37,232 nt of DNA from a virus (IMGVR_UViG_3300025637_000004), one strand, 5' to 3'. Shown: positions 727-34,899, counted from the first letter of the stretch. Notes: generated from the letters alone by a model not told the origin. Made by a program: numbers and translations.

Positions 727-1305
727 ATGATTACTCAAGCACGATTAAAAGAAGTTTTAGCTTACGATTCCGAGTCTGGGTTGTTTACTTGGAAGGTTTC
801 ACGTAATGGTGTTTCCGCTGGAAAGGTAGCTGGAAATGTCCACAAAAACACAGGTTATGTAGCAATAAAGATTGATTATATTGTGCACAGTGCACATCGG
901 CTAGCTTTTCTTTATATGACTGGAGCCTTTCCAGAAAACCAAACCGACCACATCAACGGCGTCACGCATGACAATCGATGGAGAAATTTGCGCCCCGTTA
1001 CTATCTCTGAGAATCTTCGGAATCAGGCTAAGGGCAAAAATAACAGGTCGGGGATAACTGGGGTGTGTTGGGAAAAAAGATGTCGTAAATGGAGATCTAC
1101 CATAAACATTGACGGGAAACAAAAACATATTGCTTATTTCGACCACCTCTTTGAAGCGGTCGCAGCGAGAAAGTCAGCAGAATTAGAGTACGGCTACCAT
1201 CCAAACCACGGCCGCATAGCCTTTGGATCGCGAGAGAACCGCCGACCAATAAGCAACCGAGCTAACTTAACTGCGCGAATTGGAATTAAACGAATTTCCG
1301 TCTGA
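727..1305 (+). CDS. Free-standing HNH homing endonuclease with an AP2-like DNA-binding domain
   Basis: HNH_3-type motif DHINGVTHDNRWRNLRPVTISENLRN, followed by AP2-like SGITGVCWEKRCRKWRSTINIDGKQKHIAYF. Confidence 0.85.
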   Translation: MITQARLKEVLAYDSESGLFTWKVSRNGVSAGKVAGNVHKNTGYVAIKIDYIVHSAHRLAFLYMTGAFPENQTDHINGVTHDNRWRNLRPVTISENLRNQAKGKNNRSGITGVCWEKRCRKWRSTINIDGKQKHIAYFDHLFEAVAARKSAELEYGYHPNHGRIAFGSRENRRPISNRANLTARIGIKRISV

Positions 1306-1318
1306 GAGCGGGAATACT

Positions 1319-1363
1319 GCCCACCACCTTAACTGGAGACAGTCGGCGTGGTGGTGGGCTTTT
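1319..1363 (+). terminator. Hairpin plus T-run after the HNH gene
   Basis: GCCCACCACC (1319-1328) pairs with GGTGGTGGGC (1350-1359), followed by TTTT (1360-1363). The 21-nt loop is long, so confidence is moderate. Confidence 0.5.
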
Positions 1364-1378
1364 AAGGAGAGATAAACG

Positions 1379-1582
1379 ATGTCACAAATAGAGAAGTTGA
1401 TTAACAACAAAGAAATTGCAGAAATGCTTGGGGTATCAATTAATACTTGGCGCGATATGCGAAAAGAAAGCCCAGCACCGATTCAATTTGGTAAAAATTT
1501 ATTCAGGCAATCTGATATTGAAAAGTGGCTTGACGCGAGAAGTCATAGCAGGTCTGCCAAAGCTTCTGCGTCAGCGCGGTAA
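1379..1582 (+). CDS. xis: AlpA/Xis-type excisionase or small HTH DNA-binding protein
   Basis: Strong SD AGGAGA upstream. The motif EIAEMLGVSINTWRDMRKESPAPIQFGKNLFRQSDIEKWL matches the AlpA/excisionase HTH_17 pattern. The gene sits next to int. Confidence 0.7.
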   Translation: MSQIEKLINNKEIAEMLGVSINTWRDMRKESPAPIQFGKNLFRQSDIEKWLDARSHSRSAKASASAR

Positions 1583-2496
1583 TAAGTGAGCAACATTGAT
1601 AGTTCTTTGTGGCCGGTAACTTTAGCTAGCTCTAGAACATCCAGTTTTTTGGATAGTCGTATTGTTGCCTCCCTTCGTGAATCGTGAAAGGTAACGCCGT
1701 CAATGCCTGCATTCTTGCGGGCTCGCATAAACGACGTACTGACTTGCATGGGGGATATTCTAAATCCATCCTCACCGGCAAATTTCCAAAGCTCAAGTGC
1801 TTTAGTTGATAATGGAACGCTACGGGTCTCCCCATTTTTTGAGTCGCTAACAAAAGCCACTCGGCCAGTGACGTCTTCTTTGCGTAAAGCGCAAATTTCA
1901 CCGCAGCGCATAGCAGTCTCGATGGCAAACAAGAACACCAGCGAGGCTTTGCCGGATACAGAATTAGCGCCCATGTTCATTGCCTTGGTCAAAGCGGCAA
2001 TTTCCTCATCGGTAAACCGCCTATCTCTCGGTCTGGAGTCCTTTGGTTTTTTCACATCAGCGACAGGATTGGAGGCGATCCATTGCCACTCCTTTCTCGC
2101 CGTCTCAATGGCTGCTGACAGCAAAGCAAACTCTCGGCGAACCGACGCACCCATAACATCTTTTAATCGAACGTCGCGCCACTGAGCAATATCAGAGCTA
2201 GATAATTCTTCTAGGGGTATATGGCCAATCAGTTTAGACATTGACGAAAGTCTTACCCGCTCCCATCTTCGGCCCTTTTTGTGCTCTGACACATCTTTAG
2301 AGTATCTATCAAACAAATCACCAAGGGTTTTGCCTTTGCCGCTGTGTGCGTGTTTTATAGCTTTCTCGCGAGAGTATGCCCAATCGGACGCCTCGCCTTT
2401 AGTCTCAAAAGATTTAGATTCTCTGACCTCGCCGGAAACGGTCGTTAACTGTATTTGTACTCTCCAGCGTTTGCCACTCTTTTTTATGCTAGCCAT
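1543..2496 (-). CDS. int: Tyrosine recombinase (phage integrase)
   Basis: SAM-like N-terminal core, then the catalytic region with ..MRCGEICALR.., ..TFHDSRREA.., ..GHKELSMLLTYYR (R-H-R-Y signature). It lies adjacent to attP. Confidence 0.92.
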   Translation of the reverse strand: MASIKKSGKRWRVQIQLTTVSGEVRESKSFETKGEASDWAYSREKAIKHAHSGKGKTLGDLFDRYSKDVSEHKKGRRWERVRLSSMSKLIGHIPLEELSSSDIAQWRDVRLKDVMGASVRREFALLSAAIETARKEWQWIASNPVADVKKPKDSRPRDRRFTDEEIAALTKAMNMGANSVSGKASLVFLFAIETAMRCGEICALRKEDVTGRVAFVSDSKNGETRSVPLSTKALELWKFAGEDGFRISPMQVSTSFMRARKNAGIDGVTFHDSRREATIRLSKKLDVLELAKVTGHKELSMLLTYYRADAEALADLL

Positions 2497-2507
2497 TTTT
2501 AGTTACT

Positions 2508-2722
2508 TTTGCGGGATTTGTGGGGGAAAGACTAGATTTTTATCCCGCAATTTGCAACAACTTGATACTATATGATAATGAAGTGCGTGAGTATTTGTAT
2601 AAAAAACAACAACTTAACACTATTTAATATTTTATTATATTTTGTAATGGTGCCGAAGGCGGGACTTGTATATTCGTTATAATTCAATAACTTACGTTAC
2701 TTTGTGCGGGATATTTGGGGGG
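2508..2722. other. attP region: core flanked by direct arm-type repeats
   Basis: TTTGCGGGATTTGTGGGGG (2508-2526) and GTGCGGGATATTTGGGGGG (2704-2722) are direct repeats flanking the core. An inverted copy ATCCCGCAA lies at 2542-2550. The region is non-coding and AT-rich, next to int. Confidence 0.7.
2648..2668 (-). other. attP core, identical to the 3' end of a tRNA (tRNA-Leu type). This is a fragment, not a gene.
   Basis: The minus strand reads CAAGT-CCCGC-CTTCGGC-A-CCA, which is T-loop end, T-stem 3' strand, acceptor 3' strand, discriminator A and CCA. No D or anticodon arms lie upstream. Confidence 0.7.
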
Positions 2723-2804
2723 CACTAAAAAAGGGGGGAGTTAATACTTCCGTAAATACTCGTTAAAACACATGTTACCGGCCAGAATACCCGCCAAGAC
2801 ATTT

Positions 2805-3188
2805 TTAAAAAGGCCAAGTATCTCCTGCCAATTGGTCAGAATCATCGTCAATCGGGAGGCCAGATTTTACAGAACTTGCGTAACTATGCAGCTGCAATGA
2901 CCGCATACCGCGCGCTGTAATGACAGCTTCCAGCATCTCTATTAAATCATCTTTGGTCAAATCTTCTGTCGAATTATCAGCCATTGTCCAAGGTAGCGTA
3001 GTAACGCCTAAGTTATCCCAGATTATTATTGCATTATCCATGCGATCGATAGCTTTTTCATGACAATCTACTGTTATAGCACCCACTGTAATATTTACAT
3101 CAACTGGCAATATTTCTCTTTCATCACGAATCGCATTAACAATGGCTCGCTGCTCAGTCACTTTTTCTGAAGCTAAGTTTAAAATCAT
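2805..3188 (-). CDS. Tail-fibre-associated protein, DUF4376-like (last gene of the late operon)
   Basis: Located downstream of the host-specificity gene. The pattern ...IIIWDNLGVTTLPWTMADNSTEDLTKDDLIEMLEAVITARG... resembles the DUF4376 W..dN..v.lt..el..l signature. The start overlaps the upstream stop (ATGA-type). Confidence 0.4.
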   Translation of the reverse strand: MILNLASEKVTEQRAIVNAIRDEREILPVDVNITVGAITVDCHEKAIDRMDNAIIIWDNLGVTTLPWTMADNSTEDLTKDDLIEMLEAVITARGMRSLQLHSYASSVKSGLPIDDDSDQLAGDTWPF

Positions 3189-6500: not shown

Positions 6501-9500
6501 TAGCTTCACCAAATACTACAGCGGTGGCGCTCGGTGTGAATGGAACCCAAGTAGTGTTGTCATCGTATGACCATTGCTGACCTTCTTTTTTTGCAAATAC
6601 TTTATCGACGGCCACACTGTTAACTAAATAAGGCCGCGTATATCCTGTTAAGTCTGCCGGATCTGGGTCATATACTAAAAACCCAGTTGTAGTGCCATTG
6701 CCAGTTAAAATTTTACCCTGAATACTGATCTGCTCGCCGTTGTAACTTATGTATCCAGGGATGTCAGCTGCCTGACCTTCAGCGTTAAAACCATGTATGT
6801 AAATTTCACCGTTATTTGCTGACTCAAAAGTAAGATAATTACTTTTAGCACCAATACTTGGCGAATTTACAGCAGCATTCGCTGGAGGCTTAGTACCGCC
6901 GACTCTGCTGTAATCAACGTTCTGACCTGACCCAAATATAACGTTACCATCGTCGTCTTTAATAGTCAGGTTACGAGTATCAACTTTATCCGAAGTAATG
7001 GTGTTAGCTACCAGCTTATCGCCGGTAATAGTGCCGCCGACAATTTTAGCTGCGGTCACGCTGTTAACTGCGAGTTTATCTGCCGTCACGGCAGAAGCTT
7101 TGATGGCCGAGGCCTCTATGGCGTTAACTGAAACCTTATCCGCCGTAATACTGTTTGCTGACAGCTTATCTGCCGACACCGCACCGCTGACAATTTTATC
7201 GGCCGTAATACTGTTTGCTGCCAGCTTATCTGCCGACACCGAGCCGCTTACAATCTTATCCGCCGCCACACTGTTTGCGCTGAGTTTATCGGCCGAAATA
7301 ACACCACTTACAATCTTAGCCGCCGTAATACTGTTTGCTGCAATCAAATCCGCTGTAATAGCGTTTGCTGCGACCTTCTCGGTGGATATGGCGCTGTTTG
7401 TAATGTCCGTGCCAACGATAGGAAACTTGCCCGATAAGCCAGATAGTGTAACTTCTGCGGCTGTAAGATCGCCATCCAAAGTACTAACAGTACCTGCCAA
7501 TACCTCTAAGTCAGTATCTAAAGTAACTAGCGTTGCTTCTGCAGCATCTAAATCTAACTGAACAGCAGCGATATCGTCTTCGATAGCTGTTAAATCGATA
7601 TTTACACCGACTCCTGTAACTGAATATTGAACAGGGTAATTCAATTCATCAAAGCCCCATTTATCAAAGGCTGCGATTTTAAAATACCAAGCTACGCCAT
7701 CTGCTGTTGGATATTGATAAAGCGCAAAGCCAGCATCCATAGTTGCCAGTGTTGTTAAACTTGGCGTAAAGCCGTTAGTTGTGCTTGCCCAAATTGCAAC
7801 GCCTTGTCTATCTCCTTCCTGTGAGGGCGTCCATTCAATTACCGCTTGTTCTATTCCAGCGGATACAACAACACCTGTTAACTCCGCTACCTGCTCATTT
7901 TTAACCGTGATTTCTGCCGGTAAATTGCTGCGAACATTGTTAGCGTTTACGCCGTAAAGCTTTACGCGCATTTCACGCGATAACCCATTGAGCAAAGCAG
8001 TATCTACATCAAGACTAGTAGTTATACCTGTAACATTTTGCGACCACTTTATTACTGTTGGTGAAGATTCATTAGCATATTCAACATAATAACTTTGAGC
8101 CTGTACCGAATCTGTCCATTCGATATTTAAAACCGAGCTATTGAAAACTCCGCCAACGAGTTGTAAGCCGCTTGGAGTTTCGGGCGCATCAAAACTAGAT
8201 CCAGCCTCAATTTGGAATTCATACCACGCCCCGGTTTCTTCGTCTTGCGCTGCTATACGAATATCAACTGTCGCATTTTTCAAAGCCAATGTTATTGTTG
8301 GTTCAACTACAGTTTCCCGGCCTTCCCAAAGCGCGCCCGCATTGTAAGAATATTCGACAAAATACCTTTTTCCGTTTGGGTTCCAGCTAATTTTTACTAG
8401 TGGGTCTTGCGATGTTCCACCGTAAATAACCTGAACACCGCTAATAGATAAATCTTTGTCTCCCGCTGGGGGTTGTGGTGGTGGCGTTAAGATTGTTCCA
8501 GAATTAATTAGGGCATCGTATTGATGTACCCTCGGATCGTCTAATACCGCCCGTATTTTTACTGCAACTTCGCCCGACCTTGATATGTCTTCGACCAGCA
8601 TAGCGCGGGGAGTTTCTACCCCGTCAGCAAACGCAAAAAAGGTTTTAGTTTTTGCATTGCCAGTGTACAGATATGACGGAATTGAATCAGTTACATCAAC
8701 TTTATAAGGCTGGCCAACAACCTCTGTTACAGCATAAGCGGCCGATCTTGCACCATTATCTGCGCGTAAATAAATAAAATTATTAGAAGCGCCAAATTCT
8801 ACAGGCTCCGATAAAGTGAGCCTTTGACCGCTGACGGCTACAACCTCTCCGCCTTTGCCCCAGTTCATATAATGGCTGACAACTTGTAGCCCGTCTAAAT
8901 ACTGCGGCACCATCCCATCAAGTTCAGTGGTTATTTCTGTTACTATCGTTCTGTATGCAAATCGCGCTGCTAAAAACATACCTTCGCGATTGGCTTGCGT
9001 CGCGTCCGTTAAAAAAGGCATCTTTATTAGCTTTGGCTTTGCTCCAGCCGTACCGGGAATGGCGCATAATATCCGCTCTGGCTTCCAACTCGTTGGATCA
9101 GTATATTCAATTTCGATTGAATCATCCGCCCATTGATCCATCGTCTGAAACGTTACGTTAATTGGTTTGGTGGTGTTTCGGCCGTTCATCATGTAGGAAG
9201 CTTGTGGATTACCGTCATCTCTGACGACTGAAAAATAATCACCAAACTGGACAGGGTGTGAACGACAACTAGAGCAGACTTGTTTCAATGCAGCCCAAAG
9301 GGTTCCTTTCCTATCAAATTGGCCATCATAATAATCGCTTCTTGAGTCGCAAGCATCGGCAACGGCCTTTATTTCTGTTAAATTTAAATTTGAATCTGAA
9401 TAATCACCGCCATACTCTGCCCTTAAAATATTGGCATAAGCCCACATAGGATTTCTAGTTGCTGTTTCAGCAGACCAGACCGTGCCATTCCATATAGGAA

Positions 9501-22142: not shown

Positions 22143-22613
22143 TTATTTCTTTTTATTGCCCTTCATAAATGCAGATGCCGCGTCCTCTTCTTCTGGCGCT
22201 ACAGTGCTAACTTTAGTACGACTAGAAGGCGTCATGCCAAACTCAACAAGCAAAGCTTTCATCTGATCAAAAGATTTATTGCTGATTTGAAGGTACGGAG
22301 ATTGAACCGGGAAACCAGACGGAGCTTTTATAACTGGGCCATACTTCGCTAGACTTTGATTTGCAGTCTGCCATCGCGCAAAAACTTCGCAGTACATCGC
22401 TAATGCATGAGTATCAAGATTAGTTAATACCTCAGCCTCTCTAAGCTGTTTTGAAACTATGGCCCAACATTTCTTAGCTCCATCACTTAAATGATCAGGC
22501 ATTTTAATCGCGTCGGCCTTTGGTTTAGCTTCGTTTTTAATCATCCTGCTCGGTTGTGCGGTTCCGGTGAGCAGCTTTAGTGCTGTGGGTTTGGGCTTTC
22601 TTCCTGCGGCCAT
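22143..22613 (-). CDS. terS: Terminase small subunit, P27 family
   Basis: The N-terminus MAAGRKPKPTALKLLTGTAQPSR and overall size match the P27-family small terminase. Confidence 0.85.
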   Translation of the reverse strand: MAAGRKPKPTALKLLTGTAQPSRMIKNEAKPKADAIKMPDHLSDGAKKCWAIVSKQLREAEVLTNLDTHALAMYCEVFARWQTANQSLAKYGPVIKAPSGFPVQSPYLQISNKSFDQMKALLVEFGMTPSSRTKVSTVAPEEEDAASAFMKGNKKK

Positions 22614-23365
22614 TACGCTGCCCCTTCGTTTATTTGGAGCGTGCGGGTCGGCGTCACACCGCCGCTGTGCTGCTGGTCGCAGCCATCGCTTAACTTCACA
22701 CGCTTTAAACCTTTGTACATTCCTGCGCCCATATCTTCAATTTTGGAGAATGGCAAAATAGGAACCGTTAATTTTTCTTGGTATGATTTATCGATGAAAT
22801 AAACATACCTAAGTTGAAACCCTGGAAGCAGCTTGGCCCCGGAATCCATAGCAATGCGGCTTCCAAACTTACCTCCGGAGGAATTGTTAGGATTATCTAG
22901 CGATTTCTTTGCAACTATTTTTCCATTCGGCATCTTGAGCATTTGTGTGTTTTTCTTAATTCCTGTTAAGCAGAAACCACTCGCCCGATATATTGTTCCG
23001 TCTCCACATTGCGCCCCATCGCTAAAACTAATAATCCACTTTATATTATTGTATCTTTTTTTAATCAATCTCATCGCAAACCCAATAGCGCGAGATTCGC
23101 TGTATTTTGGTAGCGCCTCACTGAATGCCATTCGATTCAATTCCATAAAATCATTCCAGAGCGTCCCATCAACCAATTTTGATGTTTTTCGAATATCAAT
23201 ACTAACTCCGAACTGCATAGCCCCCTCTAGTTTCCCATTAAGAAAAACTCCCAGGTGAAGACGGCTATTGTTTACAATCTTCCCGCTATAGTGAATTTTC
23301 TTGATAACCGCGTTCGCTGCGGCTGCGGTGATCGGCTTAATAATAATATCTTTTGCGCTAGGCAT
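22613..23365 (-). CDS. Mom-like GNAT-fold protein (putative DNA base-modification enzyme)
   Basis: Motif series IKKIHYSGK..LGVF..G.LEGAMQFG...ELNRMAF...P.YSESRAIG...IISFSD...GDGTIYRASGF..TG....RYVYF. This matches the phage family that RefSeq labels as Mom family adenine methylcarbamoylation protein (from memory; not searched). Confidence 0.5.
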   Translation of the reverse strand: MPSAKDIIIKPITAAAANAVIKKIHYSGKIVNNSRLHLGVFLNGKLEGAMQFGVSIDIRKTSKLVDGTLWNDFMELNRMAFSEALPKYSESRAIGFAMRLIKKRYNNIKWIISFSDGAQCGDGTIYRASGFCLTGIKKNTQMLKMPNGKIVAKKSLDNPNNSSGGKFGSRIAMDSGAKLLPGFQLRYVYFIDKSYQEKLTVPILPFSKIEDMGAGMYKGLKRVKLSDGCDQQHSGGVTPTRTLQINEGAA

Positions 23366-23981
23366 TTTGCGACTCTAACCACTGATTACAGATAAAAGAT
23401 ATTGCGTTACCGTTGCTGTTATCATTTATCCCAGTGTCTGAAATTGGGTTTGTCCTGGCCAATGTTACAGCTTCCTCAACATTTTGCGCTTGTTCATCGT
23501 GGAGGGTAAACGTTCGTTGCTGGAATGGATCTCGCCCGCCGTCGGGTAATTCAGGAAGACCCGTTTCAATATCAACTAGCTTACTAATAACGTCCTCGTC
23601 AAACCCCAGGAGCTCCAAATCAAAATCAAATTCTTTCAGGCTGTCAACTTCCAGCCTTAGCGCATCCAAATCCCAACCAGCATTGAGCGCCAATTGGTTG
23701 TCAGCGATCACGTACGCTTTTCGCTGTGACTCCGACATATGCGAAAGGTTAATAGTGGGAACTGAACCCAGCCCCAGTTTCTTCGCAGCCAATAAACGCC
23801 CATGCCCTGCAATGATTCCATTATCACCATCAACAAGAATTGGGTTCGTAAATCCAAACTCCTTAATGCTTGAAGCGACCTGCGTTACCTGTTCATCGCT
23901 GTGCGTTCTAGAGTTTCGAACGTAGGGAATCAAATCCGCTGTCGGCACATATTTAATGGTTAGTTCGTTATTATTTTCCAA
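23358..23981 (-). CDS. ParB/Srx-like N-terminal (nuclease) domain protein
   Basis: TTG start with SD GGGGG. The motif LIPYVRNSRTHSDEQVTQVASSIKEFGFTNPILVD..GIIAGHGRLLAAKKLG, followed by the linker GWDLDALRLEV..L.EFDFDLELLGFDEDVI, is the form seen in ParB-methylase fusions. Confidence 0.8.
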   Translation of the reverse strand: MENNNELTIKYVPTADLIPYVRNSRTHSDEQVTQVASSIKEFGFTNPILVDGDNGIIAGHGRLLAAKKLGLGSVPTINLSHMSESQRKAYVIADNQLALNAGWDLDALRLEVDSLKEFDFDLELLGFDEDVISKLVDIETGLPELPDGGRDPFQQRTFTLHDEQAQNVEEAVTLARTNPISDTGINDNSNGNAISFICNQWLESQNA

Positions 23982-28767: not shown

Positions 28768-28793
28768 AAAAAAAGCCGCCCGAAAGCAGCTTT
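28768..28793 (-). terminator. Intrinsic terminator directly upstream of the late operon (tR'-like)
   Basis: The minus strand reads AAAGCTGC-TTTCGG-GCGGCTTT followed by T-run TTTTTTT. On the plus strand the stem has a C-A mismatch, so it is specific to the minus strand. Confidence 0.6.
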
Positions 28794-28828
28794 AAGAATT
28801 TATTGTGAAATTTTCACCAATTTACATA

Positions 28829-28857
28829 AATGTAGCACTATATCGGACGGGTGACAA
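28829..28857 (-). promoter_or_regulatory. Candidate late promoter (PR'-like)
   Basis: Minus strand: TTGTCA (28857-28852), N17, TACATT (28834-28829). The predicted start lies about 30-50 nt upstream of the terminator at 28768-28793. Confidence 0.4.
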
Positions 28858-28925
28858 GTCTTTTTTACAGTAAAAAAGCCAGCAGAATAAAGAGTACCCT
28901 TGCAAGGGGGGGGTTAAATGCGGAC

Positions 28926-29036
28926 AGGCTGGCCAGCCTAAGGTGTAACAGGTAGGAGGCTGGCCAGCCTAAGGTGTAACAGGTAGGAGGCTGGCCAGCC
29001 TAAGGTGTAACAGGTAGGAGGCTGGCCAGCCTAAGT
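28926..29036. repeat. Tandem 31-bp repeat (3.5 units) carrying four copies of the 14-bp palindrome AGGCTGGCCAGCCT
   Basis: The GGCTGGCCAGCC cores lie at 28927-38, 28958-69, 28989-29000 and 29020-31, exactly 31 bp apart. The unit is GGCTGGCCAGCCTAAGGTGTAACAGGTAGGA. Confidence 0.95.
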
Positions 29037-29046
29037 TGTCTAAAAC

Positions 29047-29098
29047 GCTGATTCTAGTCAGAATCAGCACTTGCATTGTTACCGGAAACAACTATAAT
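29047..29098 (+). promoter_or_regulatory. Operator-like inverted repeat plus a near-consensus sigma70 promoter for the + strand island
   Basis: GCTGATTCT-agtc-AGAATCAGC (29047-29068). The -35 is TTGCAT (29071-76), then N16, then the -10 TATAAT (29093-98). Confidence 0.65.
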
Positions 29099-29141
29099 GT
29101 ATCTACCAACTCAGGAAAACACACAACAGGAAGCAAGAAGC

Positions 29142-29363
29142 ATGAATAACTACACTAAAATGAAGACGGACAGCTTGTATACAAAACAGATAGCGCAAGC
29201 GCGGGCGGGAGTAGGCGAGAGCAACGAGTTCTTGAGGGCTTTCTACTTAGATTGGGTCAACAATTTTCTTACGGTAGGTAGTTTCTGCGAGCACTATGGG
29301 ATAGAGGATATAAACGTAGGCAGGGAGGTAATTAATCTAGGTCGAATACTCCACGAAGAATAG
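29142..29363 (+). CDS. Hypothetical 73-aa protein (island gene 1; possible HTH at the C-terminus)
   Basis: ATG at 29142 with SD AGGAAG 8 nt upstream. The track's TTG start at 29076 lies inside or upstream of the promoter. The segment SFCEHYGIEDINVGREVINLGR looks helix-turn-helix-like. Confidence 0.6.
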   Translation: MNNYTKMKTDSLYTKQIAQARAGVGESNEFLRAFYLDWVNNFLTVGSFCEHYGIEDINVGREVINLGRILHEE

Positions 29364-29504
29364 AGAGTGCGGTGCAGGTCAAACGACGCATTAAACTGAT
29401 GGGATGGACTATCGTTCATCTTAGGCTGGCTAGCGAATTCCATTGTACCATCGAGCAAGCCTAGCAACTACTGCCCTTCTGGGGCTAACTAAAAGGAATA
29501 CATT

Positions 29505-29726
29505 ATGTCTATTCAAGCAAATTTTGATCAGCAAGCAATTGACCTGCTACCTCGCATTAAAGCAACGATTGATTCATCGTCTGAGCATGAAGCCAGCCAG
29601 CGTCGAAACGCAGCACTTCGTTTAATCAACGATAGCGTCAAACCGATCAGTGAAATGACTGCCACCGAGATTACAGCTTTTGAAGACTCGGTAAGTGAGT
29701 ATTTTGACTTTATTGAAAAACAATAA
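29505..29726 (+). CDS. Hypothetical 73-aa acidic protein (island gene 2)
   Basis: SD AAAGGA precedes the ATG. 13 D/E against 7 K/R by my count. Confidence 0.65.
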   Translation: MSIQANFDQQAIDLLPRIKATIDSSSEHEASQRRNAALRLINDSVKPISEMTATEITAFEDSVSEYFDFIEKQ

Positions 29727-29778
29727 CCTTTAACAACTGCTGAATAAGCAGCTCAATCTAAACTAAAAGGACTACATT

Positions 29779-30210
29779 ATGAACACTGCAAAACAAATAC
29801 TCGTCGCTAAAGAATTCGTCGAATGCCACAAAATATCAGACATCGATGAATGGCAACCTTTGAATCTTAGCGGTGACGACAAGCTGATCACTATCTACTA
29901 CAACATAGTAGGCGGAGTGTATGGAGAAGTCCGAGACCTAGAAATTGAAATTAGCTCATCGGATAGCAAAAGTGGCAACCCTATTATCTTTGATTGGAGC
30001 GACAAAATGACTTATCAAATTGGCGACACTAATAACGGCCCATTTTCTGATGTTTATCCCTATCTTCCTGCTGCTCTAGAAGAGCTAGACAGACTCAACG
30101 ATGAAAAGGAAGCGTTCGAAGCTGGAATGATCGCCGAAGGACTGGAAGACAGCATCGATGATGAATTCTATTACTTCATAGCGGATGCTGAAACCGGCGA
30201 AGAAATATGA
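29779..30210 (+). CDS. Hypothetical 143-aa strongly acidic protein (island gene 3; DNA-mimic / anti-defence candidate)
   Basis: Same SD context as gene 2. 33 D/E against 9 K/R by my count. No recognised motif. Confidence 0.7.
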   Translation: MNTAKQILVAKEFVECHKISDIDEWQPLNLSGDDKLITIYYNIVGGVYGEVRDLEIEISSSDSKSGNPIIFDWSDKMTYQIGDTNNGPFSDVYPYLPAALEELDRLNDEKEAFEAGMIAEGLEDSIDDEFYYFIADAETGEEI

Positions 30211-30359
30211 CTAGCACCGAGAGAGTTGCCAAACACCGCGAAGCCGCCGCAGCAGATGGAAGAAAGAGAAAAGAGTATCTAGTTACTGATACCGAGCATA
30301 ATGCACTGAAAGCATTGCTTGCTGAACTTCGTAATAAGGCTACGAAGACCAGCGTTTAA
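30207..30359 (+). CDS. Small 50-aa protein (island gene 4; possible DNA-binding regulator), absent from the ORF track
   Basis: The ATG overlaps the stop of gene 3 (ATGA). Translates to MTSTERVAKHREAAAADGRKRKEYLVTDTEHNALKALLAELRNKATKTSV. Its 3' end overlaps the convergent minus-strand gene by 20 nt. Confidence 0.5.
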   Translation: MTSTERVAKHREAAAADGRKRKEYLVTDTEHNALKALLAELRNKATKTSV

Positions 30360-30762
30360 CAATATCTTTAAAAAAGTCACTTCGACTAATCCAAGTTTCT
30401 CTATACGCGGATTTGCTGATACCTAAAATATCGGCCTCCGCTTGCTGACTTAAAAGAACCTCTGAAGTATAAGGTTCTAGCGCAATTAACGCCATTTCTC
30501 TTGATTTATCCTTAATCTTCCAATTCTTTGCTGTGCAATGCCTTTCTACCTCTACGGCCAACATCACTATCAAGTCCTTGTGGGCAGCCTCGCTGCCGTT
30601 AGCCGCCGCTCTTATATCAATGTACTGCTTTGATTTGCTTTGACTAGCTAGGCTTGTATGAGGCTCCTTAGACTTCAAATCTGGTCTAGTCTCAGTGCCT
30701 TGCGCTGTACGCCCAAAATTAAACTGTAAATGACTTTTAACTCTTATCGACCTAAAAGTCAT
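30340..30762 (-). CDS. Putative late-gene regulator at the lambda Q position
   Basis: Last gene of the early minus-strand operon, after NinG and a micro-ORF. The C-terminus SQQAEADILGISKSAYRETWISR is HTH / sigma-region-4-like. The family was not recognised. Confidence 0.3.
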   Translation of the reverse strand: MTFRSIRVKSHLQFNFGRTAQGTETRPDLKSKEPHTSLASQSKSKQYIDIRAAANGSEAAHKDLIVMLAVEVERHCTAKNWKIKDKSREMALIALEPYTSEVLLSQQAEADILGISKSAYRETWISRSDFFKDIVKRWSS

Positions 30763-30890
30763 TCACTACCCCTGCGCAACTCATTGTTAAACCAATCTCG
30801 CCAAAACTCATAAGCGAGCCAACGGTTATTTTGCTTGGCATTGTTAGCACCGTTAAAATAATAATCAATGCAGTGCGCGTTATTGATCAT
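30759..30890 (-). CDS. Micro-ORF (43 aa) coupled on both sides
   Basis: The ATG overlaps the ninG stop (ATGA) and the TGA overlaps the next ATG (ATGA). Translates to MINNAHCIDYYFNGANNAKQNNRWLAYEFWRDWFNNELRRGSE. Confidence 0.45.
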   Translation of the reverse strand: MINNAHCIDYYFNGANNAKQNNRWLAYEFWRDWFNNELRRGSE

Positions 30891-31303
30891 CCTACTACCC
30901 TGTTTTCGTGATAACGAATCTGATCTTTGAATTCCTCGGCCATTTCAGCCAATTCATCCCGCGTGTATTTTTTGCTCTCGTTTTTCAGCGCATTCAATTC
31001 ATGCACAAACTCTTTTCCGTACATATCAATCATAAAAAGCGTGTAAGGAATCGGATTGCCTTTTAGATATCCGTTACACCCCTTGCATTGCGGCCAGATA
31101 TTTTCTTTCATCAGCCGTGTCGCAGTGTATCTGCGCGATACAAAATGCCCGCCGTCTAACTCTTTGTAGTGCTTAGTCGTTCCACACGTAACGCAACTGC
31201 AATATCCGTTATCGTCTGAATTCTCTAGCCTTACCAATTTTTGTAGTAAAACGGCGACATCTTCGGAGAATTTTGCGACTGATTTTAATTTTCGCTTAGG
31301 CAT
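30887..31303 (-). CDS. ninG: NinG/Rap-family recombination endonuclease
   Basis: CSCVTCG....DGGHFVSRR.....EN.WPQCKGCN matches the NinG zinc/HNH-like signature. Position after NinB, as in lambda. Confidence 0.75.
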   Translation of the reverse strand: MPKRKLKSVAKFSEDVAVLLQKLVRLENSDDNGYCSCVTCGTTKHYKELDGGHFVSRRYTATRLMKENIWPQCKGCNGYLKGNPIPYTLFMIDMYGKEFVHELNALKNESKKYTRDELAEMAEEFKDQIRYHENRVVG

Positions 31304-31746
31304 TATTTAGAGTCTTCAATAGTTTGATTTTTAGATGGAAAGATAACGCTTACGCCTAATTTGCCTGCAGTGTGACGGTTAAGCGTTTCATAAACTTTTG
31401 CAACCTCTTCAACTTCTAACCCTGCTGTCGATGATTTATTGAGCATCGCAACCTGAATAGGCCGCCACAGAAACTGCTTTACTGTCATTTGATGCCAAGG
31501 GATATCAGCTTGTTTGCTGAGTGTTTTTTTCATATCCCAGCCCGCATCATTCAACGCTGTAGCCAGCAAATCACAAAACTTGTGTATTGCCCGATTCTGC
31601 AAAGCAGTCCTTTTTGAACGATCACCCTTAACTTCACAAACTAAAGTTTTAGCATCGCCAATTGCTTTAACATCCTCTAAATCCATCGGCGCAAAAGCCT
31701 CAACCCCCCCGACTTTTCCAACACTGACAAGAATTAACCTACTCAT
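31303..31746 (-). CDS. ninB: NinB/Orf-family recombination mediator
   Basis: RSKRTALQNRAIHKFCDLLA and NKSSTAGLEVEEVAKVYETL parallel lambda Orf RSLDQNRKLWACL and GQSTSRMRVGEFAELLELI (from memory). The ATG at 31746 is preferred over the GTG at 31761. Confidence 0.6.
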   Translation of the reverse strand: MSRLILVSVGKVGGVEAFAPMDLEDVKAIGDAKTLVCEVKGDRSKRTALQNRAIHKFCDLLATALNDAGWDMKKTLSKQADIPWHQMTVKQFLWRPIQVAMLNKSSTAGLEVEEVAKVYETLNRHTAGKLGVSVIFPSKNQTIEDSK

Positions 31747-32143: not shown

Positions 32144-32223
32144 TTTTCCTCCACCAGCGCGGCGGCTTTCTTCAGAAAACCGGACAGTGTGTCGGCAGAA
32201 TTAACGCGCCAGTATTCACCCAT
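32140..32223 (-). CDS. Micro-ORF (27 aa), coupled on both sides
   Basis: TAATG overlap with the methylase-like gene stop and ATGA overlap with the next gene. Translates to MGEYWRVNSADTLSGFLKKAAALVEEK. Confidence 0.25.
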   Translation of the reverse strand: MGEYWRVNSADTLSGFLKKAAALVEEK

Positions 32224-32818
32224 TACACAGCACCCCATTGAGCCGCCATAGCATCTGCCAGACCTTGATACGTTGTGCTGCGGATCTTCCAGCGATCCTT
32301 GCTAGGCGGCAGATAATGCAATCTTTCTCGTTGATTTTTTGGCAGCTTCATCATCGCTTCTTTGACGTTGTTGGTTGCCTGGATCGGTTCCAACCCTTTC
32401 AACCAAAGGCACGTCGCTTTCTGCTCAGGGTGACCAAACATATAGGGCTGAACAACCTGGCTTTGCTTGACCCTTCCGATCAGGGCTTTTGAGTATTTGT
32501 GCATGACTGGATTTTCTATCGCCACCTTTGCGATTGGCGCAGTGAGTAATTGCCTAAAAAACTCTCCCCTTCAAACAATTTTGGCCAACGGCTAGTGTCT
32601 TTGTGCAAGTGTTGAACACCAGAATTAGCAAGATAGGTGCACGGCGGATGCGCGATCATTAAGTCCCAGCCATCATTGATAATATCGAACACGTCCCCCT
32701 GGTGGTGGTTGCCCTCAATGTCCGTCGGCAATAGATCACAACTCCAGGCCTCATGACCCTGTTTAGCAAACGCTTCTCGAACTCGACCAGAATATTCACA
32801 AGCTACCAACACCTTCAC
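32223..32818 (-). pseudogene. DNA cytosine-methyltransferase-like gene split by a frame break at a homopolymer (sequencing error, phase variation or -1 frameshifting)
   Basis: GTG at 32818 with SD GAGGA 5 nt upstream. Frame A reads MKVLVACEYSGRVREAF...DLMIAHPPCTYL...LFEGESF. Frame B reads FFRQLLTAPIAKVAIENPV....RSTTYQGLADAMAAQWG. The two frames join if the A6 run at 32556-32561 were A7. Confidence 0.55.
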
Positions 32819-32828
32819 ACCGCAATCC

Positions 32829-32993
32829 TCATTTCGTTCTCCTGTAAAATTCATCCGTGGTGATTGATTTACCAAGTCGTAACTCTTCCCGCGATAAACT
32901 ATCAAGATCGTACGCCCGCTCTCGTCGTGAGATTCGCGCTAACATTTCTGCTTCTTTTAAATCCAATGGAAATAATCGATCTGGCTTTAACAT
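32829..32993 (-). CDS. Small 54-aa protein, absent from the ORF track
   Basis: The ATG overlaps the upstream stop (TAATG). Its stop lies just before the methylase SD. Translates to MLKPDRLFPLDLKEAEMLARISRRERAYDLDSLSREELRLGKSITTDEFYRRTK. Confidence 0.45.
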   Translation of the reverse strand: MLKPDRLFPLDLKEAEMLARISRRERAYDLDSLSREELRLGKSITTDEFYRRTK

Positions 32994-33630: not shown

Positions 33631-34399
33631 TTTTCTTAGGTTGGGTAATCGAGTCGGCCCAACTTCTATCGGTTAGATTTTCAAAGGTTGTTTTTCTCTC
33701 CGCTATTGCGGGCAACCTATGATTAATCGCATCTTCCCAGCGTTCACCGTTTAAATACGTCGTTGGGTGCATTTCTGCAAAACCGAGTTGATTAGAATTT
33801 AGCCTAGCCTTCACATCAATAATTAGGATCTCTGTAAAGCTCGCCGCGTCCGTTTGTTTTTTTAAAAGATTGTTGAATAGGGCCAAGGTTTTCTTTTTGT
33901 TAACCTTACGAATGCCAGACCGCCAAAATTGCTCGAATAATTCAAGGTCAATCGAAGATTGATCAAGTGTTTTAATAATTGGTTCTTGGTTATTGGTTAT
34001 TGGTTCTTGGTTATGAACACGTGTTGAACGAGATTTAACACCTGTTGCTTTTTTCCTTAGTTCTTCTGATTTCTTTCGCCTTGCCTCTGCGCTTGCTATA
34101 CCCGCTCTGGCCTTGGCCCCAATGTTTGCGCGGTATTTGGTAATTTCTTCATCGCAGCGAATATGAAAGTAACCATCGTCTGAAATTTCAAAAAACTCAT
34201 CTAAAATATCAATAAGCGCGTTTTTTTCATCATCGACAAAACAAAGCAGGCGCTTTGAAAGCTTATCGATATTGGTTATTAGTGGTAACTCCGTGTCGTA
34301 ATAGTGTTCTATTGCGTCTCTGTAGACGCTACGTTCAACGCGTGTTAAATGGCGGGTTGCATTGTTAAAATCGCTAATATGGTGAGGATAAAATTTCAT
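33608..34399 (-). CDS. DUF1376 (YdaU-like) replication initiation / primosome-recruiting protein
   Basis: The N-terminus FYPHHISDFNNATRHLTRVERSVYRDAIEHYYDTELPL is the DUF1376 signature. The C-terminus FEQFWRSGIRKVNKKKTLALF....TTYLNGERWED is typical of phage replication proteins. Confidence 0.75.
   Translation of the reverse strand: MKFYPHHISDFNNATRHLTRVERSVYRDAIEHYYDTELPLITNIDKLSKRLLCFVDDEKNALIDILDEFFEISDDGYFHIRCDEEITKYRANIGAKARAGIASAEARRKKSEELRKKATGVKSRSTRVHNQEPITNNQEPIIKTLDQSSIDLELFEQFWRSGIRKVNKKKTLALFNNLLKKQTDAASFTEILIIDVKARLNSNQLGFAEMHPTTYLNGERWEDAINHRLPAIAERKTTFENLTDRSWADSITQPKKIGVIYEA
33979..34013. repeat. Five head-to-tail heptamers TTGGTT(C/A) inside the replication gene (candidate iterons)
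   Basis: The plus strand reads TTGGTTC TTGGTTA TTGGTTA TTGGTTC TTGGTTA. It encodes NQEPITNNQEPI in the interdomain linker. Confidence 0.9.
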
Positions 34400-34858: not shown

Positions 34859-34899
34859 AGTTTAGATATGTTGACTGAAAAGGTCAAGATATCTAAACA
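34859..34899. promoter_or_regulatory. OR-like immunity region: 16-bp-arm inverted repeat containing two back-to-back divergent promoters
   Basis: GTTTAGATATgTTGAC (34860-75), tgaaaag, GTCAAgATATCTAAAC (34883-98). The minus-strand promoter is TTGACC-N17-TAAACT, with its predicted +1 at the cro-like ATG. The plus-strand promoter is TTGACT-N17-TAAACA. Confidence 0.6.

Follow-up and report, generated by a model that had tools for sequence, protein, structure and literature searches.

The viral sequence that we analysed (IMGVR_UViG_3300025637_000004, 37,232 nucleotides, hereafter the window) carries a tandem array of a 31-bp unit, each copy containing a perfect 14-bp palindrome. The array sits in the only large non-coding stretch, between two divergent promoters that are each conserved in relatives. 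It is non-random, far beyond what chance would produce, and it is not an assembly artefact. Comparison with a diverged relative shows the array to be part of a conserved, apparently portable promoter module of about 250 bp, comprising the array, a stem-loop, a sigma-70 promoter and a 5'UTR, that drives a swappable cargo operon located between the Q-position gene and a Q-type late promoter. Our preferred explanation, which we hold tentatively and with somewhat less than even confidence, is that the array is an upstream binding array for a dimeric protein that tunes or insulates the cargo promoter, and that its copy number shifts by slippage. Nearly as likely is a functionless or near-functionless minisatellite, in which a palindrome-bearing segment was simply duplicated by slippage.

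Sequence and assembly support of the array

Tandem Repeats Finder reported a period of 31, 3.7 copies, 98% matches and zero indels over the array. The palindrome AGGCTGGCCAGCCT occurs exactly at positions 28926, 28957, 28988 and 29019, and is perfect over all 14 bp in each of the four copies. These two results bear out the earlier note, which had described four such palindromes at exact 31-bp steps in a unit repeated head to tail with nothing between the copies. With up to three mismatches allowed, the palindrome has 10 matches in the window against 1.09 expected, and none of 100 shuffles reached 10. When 31-bp units were shuffled with their composition kept, about 0.1% contained a perfect palindrome of at least 14 bp, while the remaining genome contains three 14-bp perfect palindromes. 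The two figures pull the minisatellite explanation in opposite directions: such palindromes do occur about three times elsewhere in the genome, but a random 31-bp unit would contain one only about 0.1% of the time.

Within the unit, the remaining 17 bp form a spacer. The sole difference between copies is a G to T change in the last, partial unit (AAGTTGT rather than AAGGTGT); otherwise the copies are 100% identical, spacers included, as a minisatellite would predict. Since the spacers are identical as well as the palindromes, nothing shows selection on the dyad specifically.

The ends of the window share a direct overlap of 127 nt, which indicates that it is a circular SPAdes contig assembled at k = 127 and that the genome measures 37,105 bp. 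Because the 114-nt array is shorter than this k, its four copies are supported by real spanning k-mers. Four palindromes are also present in three further circular, near-full-length contigs (L004, L008 and L069), each broken exactly at the array. Two of these measure 37,160 and 37,204 nt, that is, 37,105 plus the SPAdes k values 55 and 99, and the third measures 37,228 nt.

A degenerate fifth site had been proposed inside the island of small genes that follows the array. This site is real and longer than first stated: CATCTTAGGCTGGCTAGC, in the intergenic region between the first two island genes, is a diverged, inverted copy of part of the unit and matches GCTGGCCAGCCTAAGGTG at 16 of 18 bases. 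We estimate the chance of such a match within the island at about 0.002. A homologous extra copy in the next intergenic region speaks for a binding array and against a minisatellite; under the latter explanation, hairpin-forming palindromes would promote slippage the array would since have grown, shrunk and homogenised its copies with no sequence-specific role, and the fifth site would be a decayed copy from an earlier rearrangement in this mosaic region.

Divergent promoters and flanking hairpins

The divergent late and island promoters on either side of the array are well supported, both being conserved in relatives, and the architecture of perfect dyads spaced about three helical turns apart between them is real. 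The distances given in the earlier note are also correct: 69 bp separate the start of the array from the -35 hexamer of the late promoter on the minus strand, and about 32-35 bp lie between its end and the TTGCAT of the plus-strand island promoter. The two hexamers of the island promoter occupy 29071-29076 and 29093-29098, and are followed by a 5'UTR, the Shine-Dalgarno sequence AGGAAG and an ATG at 29142. The coordinates of all features are collected in Table 1.

The late promoter and the intrinsic terminator that follows it form a pR'/tR'-like arrangement, the layout typical of Q-type antitermination. A more distant relative (L012) also has an analogous terminator. The AT-rich palindrome just upstream of the promoter, conserved along with it in L013 and L078, is a candidate binding element for the Q-position protein. 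A late control unit composed of AT-rich palindrome, promoter, the palindrome GTGAAAATTTCAC and terminator can be delineated in the window (28772-28878, minus strand), in L012 (1680-1890) and in a close relative, L013 (508-620).

Each side of the array carries a potential hairpin. The palindrome CCCTTGCAAGGG, on the side of the late promoter, is followed on the minus strand by the T-rich run TACTCTTTATTCT. The stem-loop directly 5' of the island -35 has GTTTTAG after it, again on the minus strand, and may thus weakly terminate early transcripts that read through. A diverged relative, L078, retains the stem of this stem-loop and extends it to 10 bp while the loop is altered, which favours a hairpin over a fixed-spacing operator. 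With two flanking hairpins that resemble weak minus-strand terminators, the array would stay transcriptionally quiet. A scan of IMG/VR for the stem-loop gave zero matches.

These hairpins raise the question of whether the array itself is a structural or insulating element of DNA or RNA, its units forming stable hairpins or cruciforms that, with the flanking stem-loops, would block or process antisense early read-through or absorb supercoiling between the promoters. We consider this improbable. Both strands fold far better than shuffled sequences (-83 and -90 kcal/mol, z = -7.8 and -5.6), and the retained stem with its changed loop in L078 is what such an element would show. We found no terminator-like site in 29900-31400, a range that includes the overlap between the convergent Q-position gene and island, so early transcripts would be expected to extend into the array region. 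However, repeated palindromes automatically give strong folding, no T-run follows the units, and the single substitution within the unit in L078 weakens the individual hairpin. The best Rfam match, to the cis-regulatory RNA GP20-a (28893-28949, plus strand), is not significant, at 21.4 bits against a gathering threshold of 47.2 (E = 1.2). It spans the CCCTTGCAAGGG hairpin, an exact UUAAAUGC and the first palindrome, a curious likeness in primary sequence. Other Rfam families gave zero meaningful matches to the array region.

Table 1. Features of the array region and the neighbouring genes (coordinates in the window; a dot marks features given without a strand)
Feature	Position	Strand	Basis or comparison
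Intrinsic terminator, about 30-55 nt past the late promoter start, before the holin-like gene	28772..28793	-	conserved in L013 and L078
Late promoter, TTGTCA-17 nt-TACATT, TG before the second hexamer	28829..28857	-	conserved in L013 and L078; similar layout in L012
AT-rich palindrome CTTTTTTAC-T-GTAAAAAAG, just upstream of the late promoter	28860..28878	-	sequence
Island, 1.43 kb, ending at a 5-bp AAAGC/GCTTT microhomology	28876..30306	+	gone from L013
Palindrome CCCTTGCAAGGG, between array and late promoter	28897..28908	.	identical in L078
Tandem array, 3.7 copies of the 31-bp unit AGGCTGGCCAGCCTAAGGTGTAACAGGTAGG	28926..29039	.	repeat finding, spanning k-mers
Stem-loop GCTGATTCT-AGTC-AGAATCAGC, directly 5' of the island -35	29047..29068	.	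sequence; L078 comparison
Island (cargo) promoter, sigma-70, TTGCAT-16 nt-TATAAT	29071..29098	+	sequence; conserved in L078
g1, 73 aa	29142..29363	+	DNA homology
Diverged inverted copy of part of the unit, CATCTTAGGCTGGCTAGC, between g1 and g2	29417..29434	-	sequence comparison
g2, 73 aa, acidic	29505..29726	+	DNA homology
g3, 143 aa, acidic	29779..30210	+	DNA homology
g4, 50 aa, very basic	30207..30359	+	uncharacterised conserved family
Q-position gene, 140 aa	30340..30762	-	zero known-family matches

The phage genome and its Q-position gene

The window is the complete genome, a circle of 37,105 bp, of an uncultured lambdoid temperate phage from marine metagenomes. Its gene content includes an integrase (1543-2496), SSB, CI, Cro-like proteins, a DUF1376 replication protein, NinB and NinG. 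The lysis genes, a collagen-like fibre gene and the HNH, ParB_N, Mom, terminase and HK97-type head and tail genes lie on the minus strand, as does the Q-position gene, and four small plus-strand genes (g1 to g4) are found between the Q-position gene and the lysis genes. The Q-position protein has zero matches in Pfam, PHROG or the PDB, its structure prediction was uninformative (pLDDT 49), and its homologues form only two clusters among 5.8 billion sequences. Read by eye, its C-terminus resembles a possible helix-turn-helix, and the protein, which matches no known antiterminator family, may be a new type of Q-like regulator. Locus searches of IMG/VR seeded with the Q-position protein and with the amidase returned zero results.

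Several other repeats and palindromes are present in the genome. A heptamer, ATTGGTT, is repeated 5.3 times at 33978-34014 within the DUF1376 replication gene, where it is translated as a repeated NQEPI peptide and might act as an origin-like element, and a 60-bp repeat is present in 3.5 copies at 7135-7341 within the gene for a 2366-aa tail protein. Between the cro-like and cI-like genes (34860-34898) lies a nested palindrome, GTTTAGATAT GTTGAC ... GTCAAG ATATCTAAAC, which probably represents the CI/Cro operators. We considered and rejected the possibility that the array itself consists of such operators; the immunity-region palindromes are unrelated to the unit. On the minus strand at 32223-32905, two adjacent ORFs of 129 and 100 aa, the first of which matches phrog_757, resemble a split DNA methyltransferase; gene calls in this region vary among otherwise identical contigs, and it may contain a frameshift or a pseudogene.

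Relatives with and without the island

In L013, the Q-position protein is 96% identical and the late promoter and terminator are kept, but the whole island is absent together with the array, and the late promoter lies within about 50 bp of the Q-position gene. L013 nevertheless retains the last 16 or so codons of g4, antisense to the Q-position gene. Because the g4 protein of the window is a full-length member of its family, this remnant identifies L013 as a deletion derivative, in which the deletion joined two AAAGC microhomologies. The alternative that the island is an insertion flanked by a 5-bp target duplication is ruled out by the g4 family alignment and the L013 remnant. The deletion shows that the island, including the array, is dispensable, which counts against a binding array and in favour of a minisatellite. 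In L012, whose Q-position protein is 61% identical, two different small genes occupy the same slot.

A TARA Oceans contig, L078, provides a more diverged comparison, with about 97% identity in the late genes and the non-coding region and 88.6% from g2 to the Q-position gene. It keeps the non-coding module and g2 to g4, but a different ORF of 50 aa stands in the place of g1, with the junction just past the conserved 5'UTR, and the inverted copy of the unit is missing. Its island promoter has an additional TG upstream of the -10. That array, stem-loop, promoter and 5'UTR were retained together despite the exchange of the first gene indicates that the module was kept as a regulatory unit.

The L078 array has two copies, with an unchanged 17-bp spacer. 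Both of its palindromes share a C to A change (AGGCTGGCCAGCAT) that breaks pair 2-13 and leaves six of the seven pairs. From this shared change we conclude, by sequence comparison, that the array copies evolve in concert and that the dyad is not kept strictly perfect. The one change within the unit thus falls in the dyad, and does so identically in both copies; at a local divergence of about 3%, one change per unit is expected, too few to compare constraint on the dyad with that on the spacer. A dyad-breaking change in both copies is a point against a binding array, and concerted change with an imperfect dyad is a point for a minisatellite. On the other hand, the persistence of at least two copies in both lineages, attached to a conserved promoter module, argues against a minisatellite.

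Copy number

We found two copies rather than four in L078 and in three further contigs (L002, L003 and L068). The three contigs that share the genomic background of the window come from other samples, are fragmentary, and match the window at 100% identity for up to 12.4 kb except that they lack 62 bp, or two units. We looked for a SNP linked to the two-copy form, which would have marked a separate haplotype, and found none.

The earlier note had proposed that copy number varying freely among otherwise identical genomes would point to a neutral minisatellite. At face value, two against four copies in otherwise 100% identical genomes is such variation; it favours a minisatellite and counts against a binding array. 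However, a two-copy array is 52 nt long, precisely the length of the shortest route that an assembly at k = 33 can take through the repeat loop, and the two-copy form may therefore be an assembly collapse. Among the contigs of identical background, it occurs only in fragmented assemblies, and for two of them the circular four-copy genome was obtained from a sibling sample of the same project or sampling series. Given the turnover seen in L078, true polymorphism is also plausible.

Cargo genes and their origin

The island is a mosaic. Bases 29159-29362 of g1 share 95.6% DNA identity with an early gene from a lytic podovirus-like phage, and the 3' end of g1 is truncated relative to its podovirus-like homologues. 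The phage resembling the donor of g1 encodes an ECF-sigma-like protein, a primase-helicase and PolA. An AlphaFold model of the g1 protein is a confident four-helix bundle, and a comparison of this model with the PDB yielded zero significant matches. The block containing g2 and g3 (29487-30210) is 89% identical in DNA to a block in a plasmid-like element (L070/L075), which encodes an RPA replication initiator, a helicase and a ParB_N protein and also contains 22-bp iterons. The g3 gene is also found in the early accessory region of another phage, beside an ArdC-like gene. These identities indicate that a temperate siphovirus-like phage, a lytic podovirus-like phage and a plasmid-like element have very recently exchanged genes within the same waters. 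The cargo genes may serve in anti-defence or exclusion.

Neither the palindrome nor the 31-bp unit is present in any of the donor-like loci examined. Specifically, the loci of g1 homologues that are 84-93% identical lack TGGCCA sites. In the podovirus-like loci L062-L065, TGGCCA occurs 0 times in about 18 kb, where about four occurrences are expected; these loci share a recurrent intergenic motif, TGATGATAGCTAAtCAG...GAGAACCaTTCTCATCT, that is probably the phage's own promoter. We rejected the idea that the array mimics this motif, as the unit is unlike it and shared k-mers are not above chance. The location of the array within a patchwork of recently exchanged gene fragments is consistent with a minisatellite.

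A near-identical box of 21 nt, AACTAAAAGGA(A/C)TACATTATG, precedes both g2 (29487-29507) and g3 (29761-29781), and a related box precedes an internal ATG at 29160 within g1. It could be a shared translation-initiation or cassette-boundary sequence that aids gene shuffling.

The last island gene, g4, encodes the only basic protein of the island, and its 3' end overlaps that of the Q-position gene by 20 bp. Members of its family are basic proteins of roughly 43-50 aa with the motif STxRVxKHR..GRKRKEYLVTDxEH..IKALLxxLR. Our screens by sequence and structure assigned no known DNA-binding fold or family to g4; below threshold, it showed weak likeness to MazE-like proteins (PF11455) and to basic-region helices. 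Another contig with a g4 homologue, L077 (IMGVR_UViG_3300025276_003812), contains, 3' of that homologue and two acidic small genes, about 2 kb (1000-3181) without convincing ORFs on either strand, which may be a structured RNA or an intron-like element.

Candidate binding proteins and other classes of repeat

We screened candidate binders by sequence and structure, and this screen identified no cognate binding protein, a result in keeping with a minisatellite. The earlier note had put forward the Q-position regulator, an island-encoded regulator and the ParB-domain protein. For an island-encoded regulator, the charge of the proteins leaves g4 as the sole candidate DNA-binder, and such a regulator is possible. 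The Q-position protein is disfavoured, since L013 keeps its gene (96%) along with the late promoter and terminator in a genome from which the array is gone. The array is also unlike a Q-binding element in its placement, 69 bp upstream of the -35.

The ParB-domain protein, proposed as the ligand of a parS-like site, fared no better. It is a 207-aa protein of a stand-alone nuclease type that is found fused to phage DNA methylases (phrog_498, phrog_15396), with a GHGRLLAAKKLG motif and an acidic C-terminus. Pfam recognises in it only an N-terminal ParB_N domain (residues 24-85), and this nuclease- or methylase-type assignment, with no Pfam DNA-binding domain, disfavours it as a binder. Its gene adjoins the Mom gene near the terminase genes; in the region 22613-23981 (minus strand), ParB_N is directly upstream of the Mom-like gene, between the HNH and small-terminase genes. 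The pair may form a DNA-modification module.

A centromere-like site of the parS or sopC type, or a secondary iteron origin as the earlier note had also suggested, is very improbable in our assessment. Phased tandem palindromes do resemble sopC-type centromeres and origin iterons, and the window does encode a ParB_N protein. However, that protein is of the methylase-associated type just described, the window ORFs that we scanned included no ParA gene, and an integrase is encoded; an integrating phage in which ParA was not found is unlikely to carry a centromere. For an origin, the region is deletable, as L013 demonstrates, and 4.6 kb separate the array from the DUF1376 replication gene, which has its own internal repeat. 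The true iterons of L070/L075 differ in kind, being imperfect 22-bp repeats beside the RPA gene. An origin is unlikely on all three counts.

We also rejected three further classes. The array does not fit a sigma-54 enhancer: TTGCA elements are present, yet visual inspection shows no GG at -24. A CRISPR array or repeat-mimic RNA is disfavoured by the absence of CRISPR spacers and by zero matches between the array and CRISPR-DR families at E <= 10. An invertible promoter of the Hin or Fim type was considered because inverted copies of the unit do flank the island promoter and g1. However, no invertase-like gene was found among the ORFs scanned, all independent contigs have the same orientation, and L078 lacks the inverted copy.

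Searches for the motif elsewhere

We searched phage and plasmid records, IMG/VR, GTDB genomes and JGI metagenomes, and did not find the motif elsewhere. Scans for pairs of the palindrome gave zero matches in IMG/VR, a single Flintibacter match in GTDB genomes that we took as chance, and 48 unrelated, mostly GC-rich repeats in JGI metagenomes. A scan of IMG/VR for a single site, using a 17-mer, gave one match, in an ordinary unrelated stretch and likewise taken as chance. BLAST searches of the region and of the neighbouring proteins against phage and plasmid records returned zero matches. The absence of the motif elsewhere in these collections favours a minisatellite over a binding array.

One JGI contig deserves separate mention. 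L029 (Ga0315291_10586157), an AT-rich contig of 1 kb, contains at 440-660 an array of 31-bp period, TGGCTGGCCAGCCAACCAACACATGAATATA, with the same 12-bp core palindrome. Its spacer and context are unrelated and it is embedded in nested repeats of 89 and 109 bp; the likeness is probably a coincidence.

Discussion

If the array is a binding platform, each 14-bp dyad would dock one dimer of a putative DNA-binding protein. The spacing of 31 bp, about three helical turns, would place these dimers on one face of the helix, where they could bind cooperatively. The perfect dyads, their spacing and their position between divergent promoters fit such a platform. Counted from the start of the cargo promoter, the dyads are centred at about -80, -111, -142 and -173; counted from that of the late promoter, they are centred at about -111 to -204. 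Proteins bound there would modulate the cargo promoter and shield it from the divergent late promoter, and might form a loop with the diverged inverted copy, which lies about 320 bp beyond the cargo start. The best candidate binder encoded by the island would be the g4 protein, and the alternative would be a host protein. The array would grow and shrink by slippage or unequal exchange (from two to four copies, if the two-copy form is not a collapse), with its copies homogenised in the process.

In support of a binding array, the island encodes a conserved, highly basic 50-aa protein that belongs to a real family. Against it, the sites overlap neither core promoter, and DNA binding by g4 or g1 has no support from family or fold. 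A more specific version, in which the array is a copy-number-tunable operator or 'rheostat' in a portable cassette, read by g4-family proteins as new DNA-binding regulators and letting temperate marine phages express captured early genes of competing lytic phages and plasmids, is in our view doubtful. Here a change from two to four copies would set the level of cargo expression with the helical phase kept.

The array resembles several known systems. Multi-site operator arrays include the lambda OR and OL operators with long-range looping, the FL and FR flanking sites of 186 CI, and the tandem met boxes of MetJ. Like these, the array presents dyad sites in helical phase beside divergent promoters, and its weaker distant copy could support looping. 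Unlike them, its sites are about 80-200 bp upstream of both starts and leave the core promoters clear, its units are perfect even in their spacers, and the dyad is not strictly conserved in L078. The sopC centromere of the F plasmid consists of 12 tandem 43-bp repeats, each with a SopB-binding inverted repeat, and its copy number is flexible. Near-perfect head-to-tail repeats with one palindrome each are common to both, but here no ParA/ParB pair was found, the phage integrates, and the array lies in a dispensable cargo island. The lambda origin contains four O-binding dyads, and the array likewise has four phased repeats with dyad symmetry; it differs in that it is not beside the replication initiator, its repeats are perfect rather than diverged, and it is deleted in a relative. 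We also identified neither DnaA boxes nor an unwinding element next to the array.

The setting of the array also has parallels. Lambdoid phages carry morons, or cargo slots, in the interval from Q to the late promoter or lysis genes; stx in Stx phages is an example. As in these, accessory genes with their own promoter occupy the Q-to-lysis interval, and their content differs among L012, L013 and L078. In contrast to stx-type cargo, the operon is divergent from the late operon, convergent with Q and upstream of the late promoter, and its promoter module contains a repeat array. Finally, bacterial and phage genomes contain minisatellites (VNTRs), including contingency repeats located in promoters. 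The array shares with VNTRs its perfect copies, its apparent variation between two and four copies in clonal backgrounds and its concerted evolution. It differs in the long 31-bp unit with a perfect 14-bp dyad, and in that a change in copy number preserves helical phase and does not shift promoter spacing. The array is an orphan instance that resembles known phased repeat arrays and is not a new class.

In this uncultured and nearly clonal lineage, the more solid results are the Q-type late promoter and terminator unit with its unclassified Q-position protein, the cargo hot spot at that junction, and the very recent gene exchange, at up to 96% DNA identity, across unrelated mobile elements. 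Should the array prove to be a binding platform, it would belong to a compact, self-contained cassette through which a prophage could express genes acquired from lytic phages that compete with it, and would point to a novel family of very small regulators.
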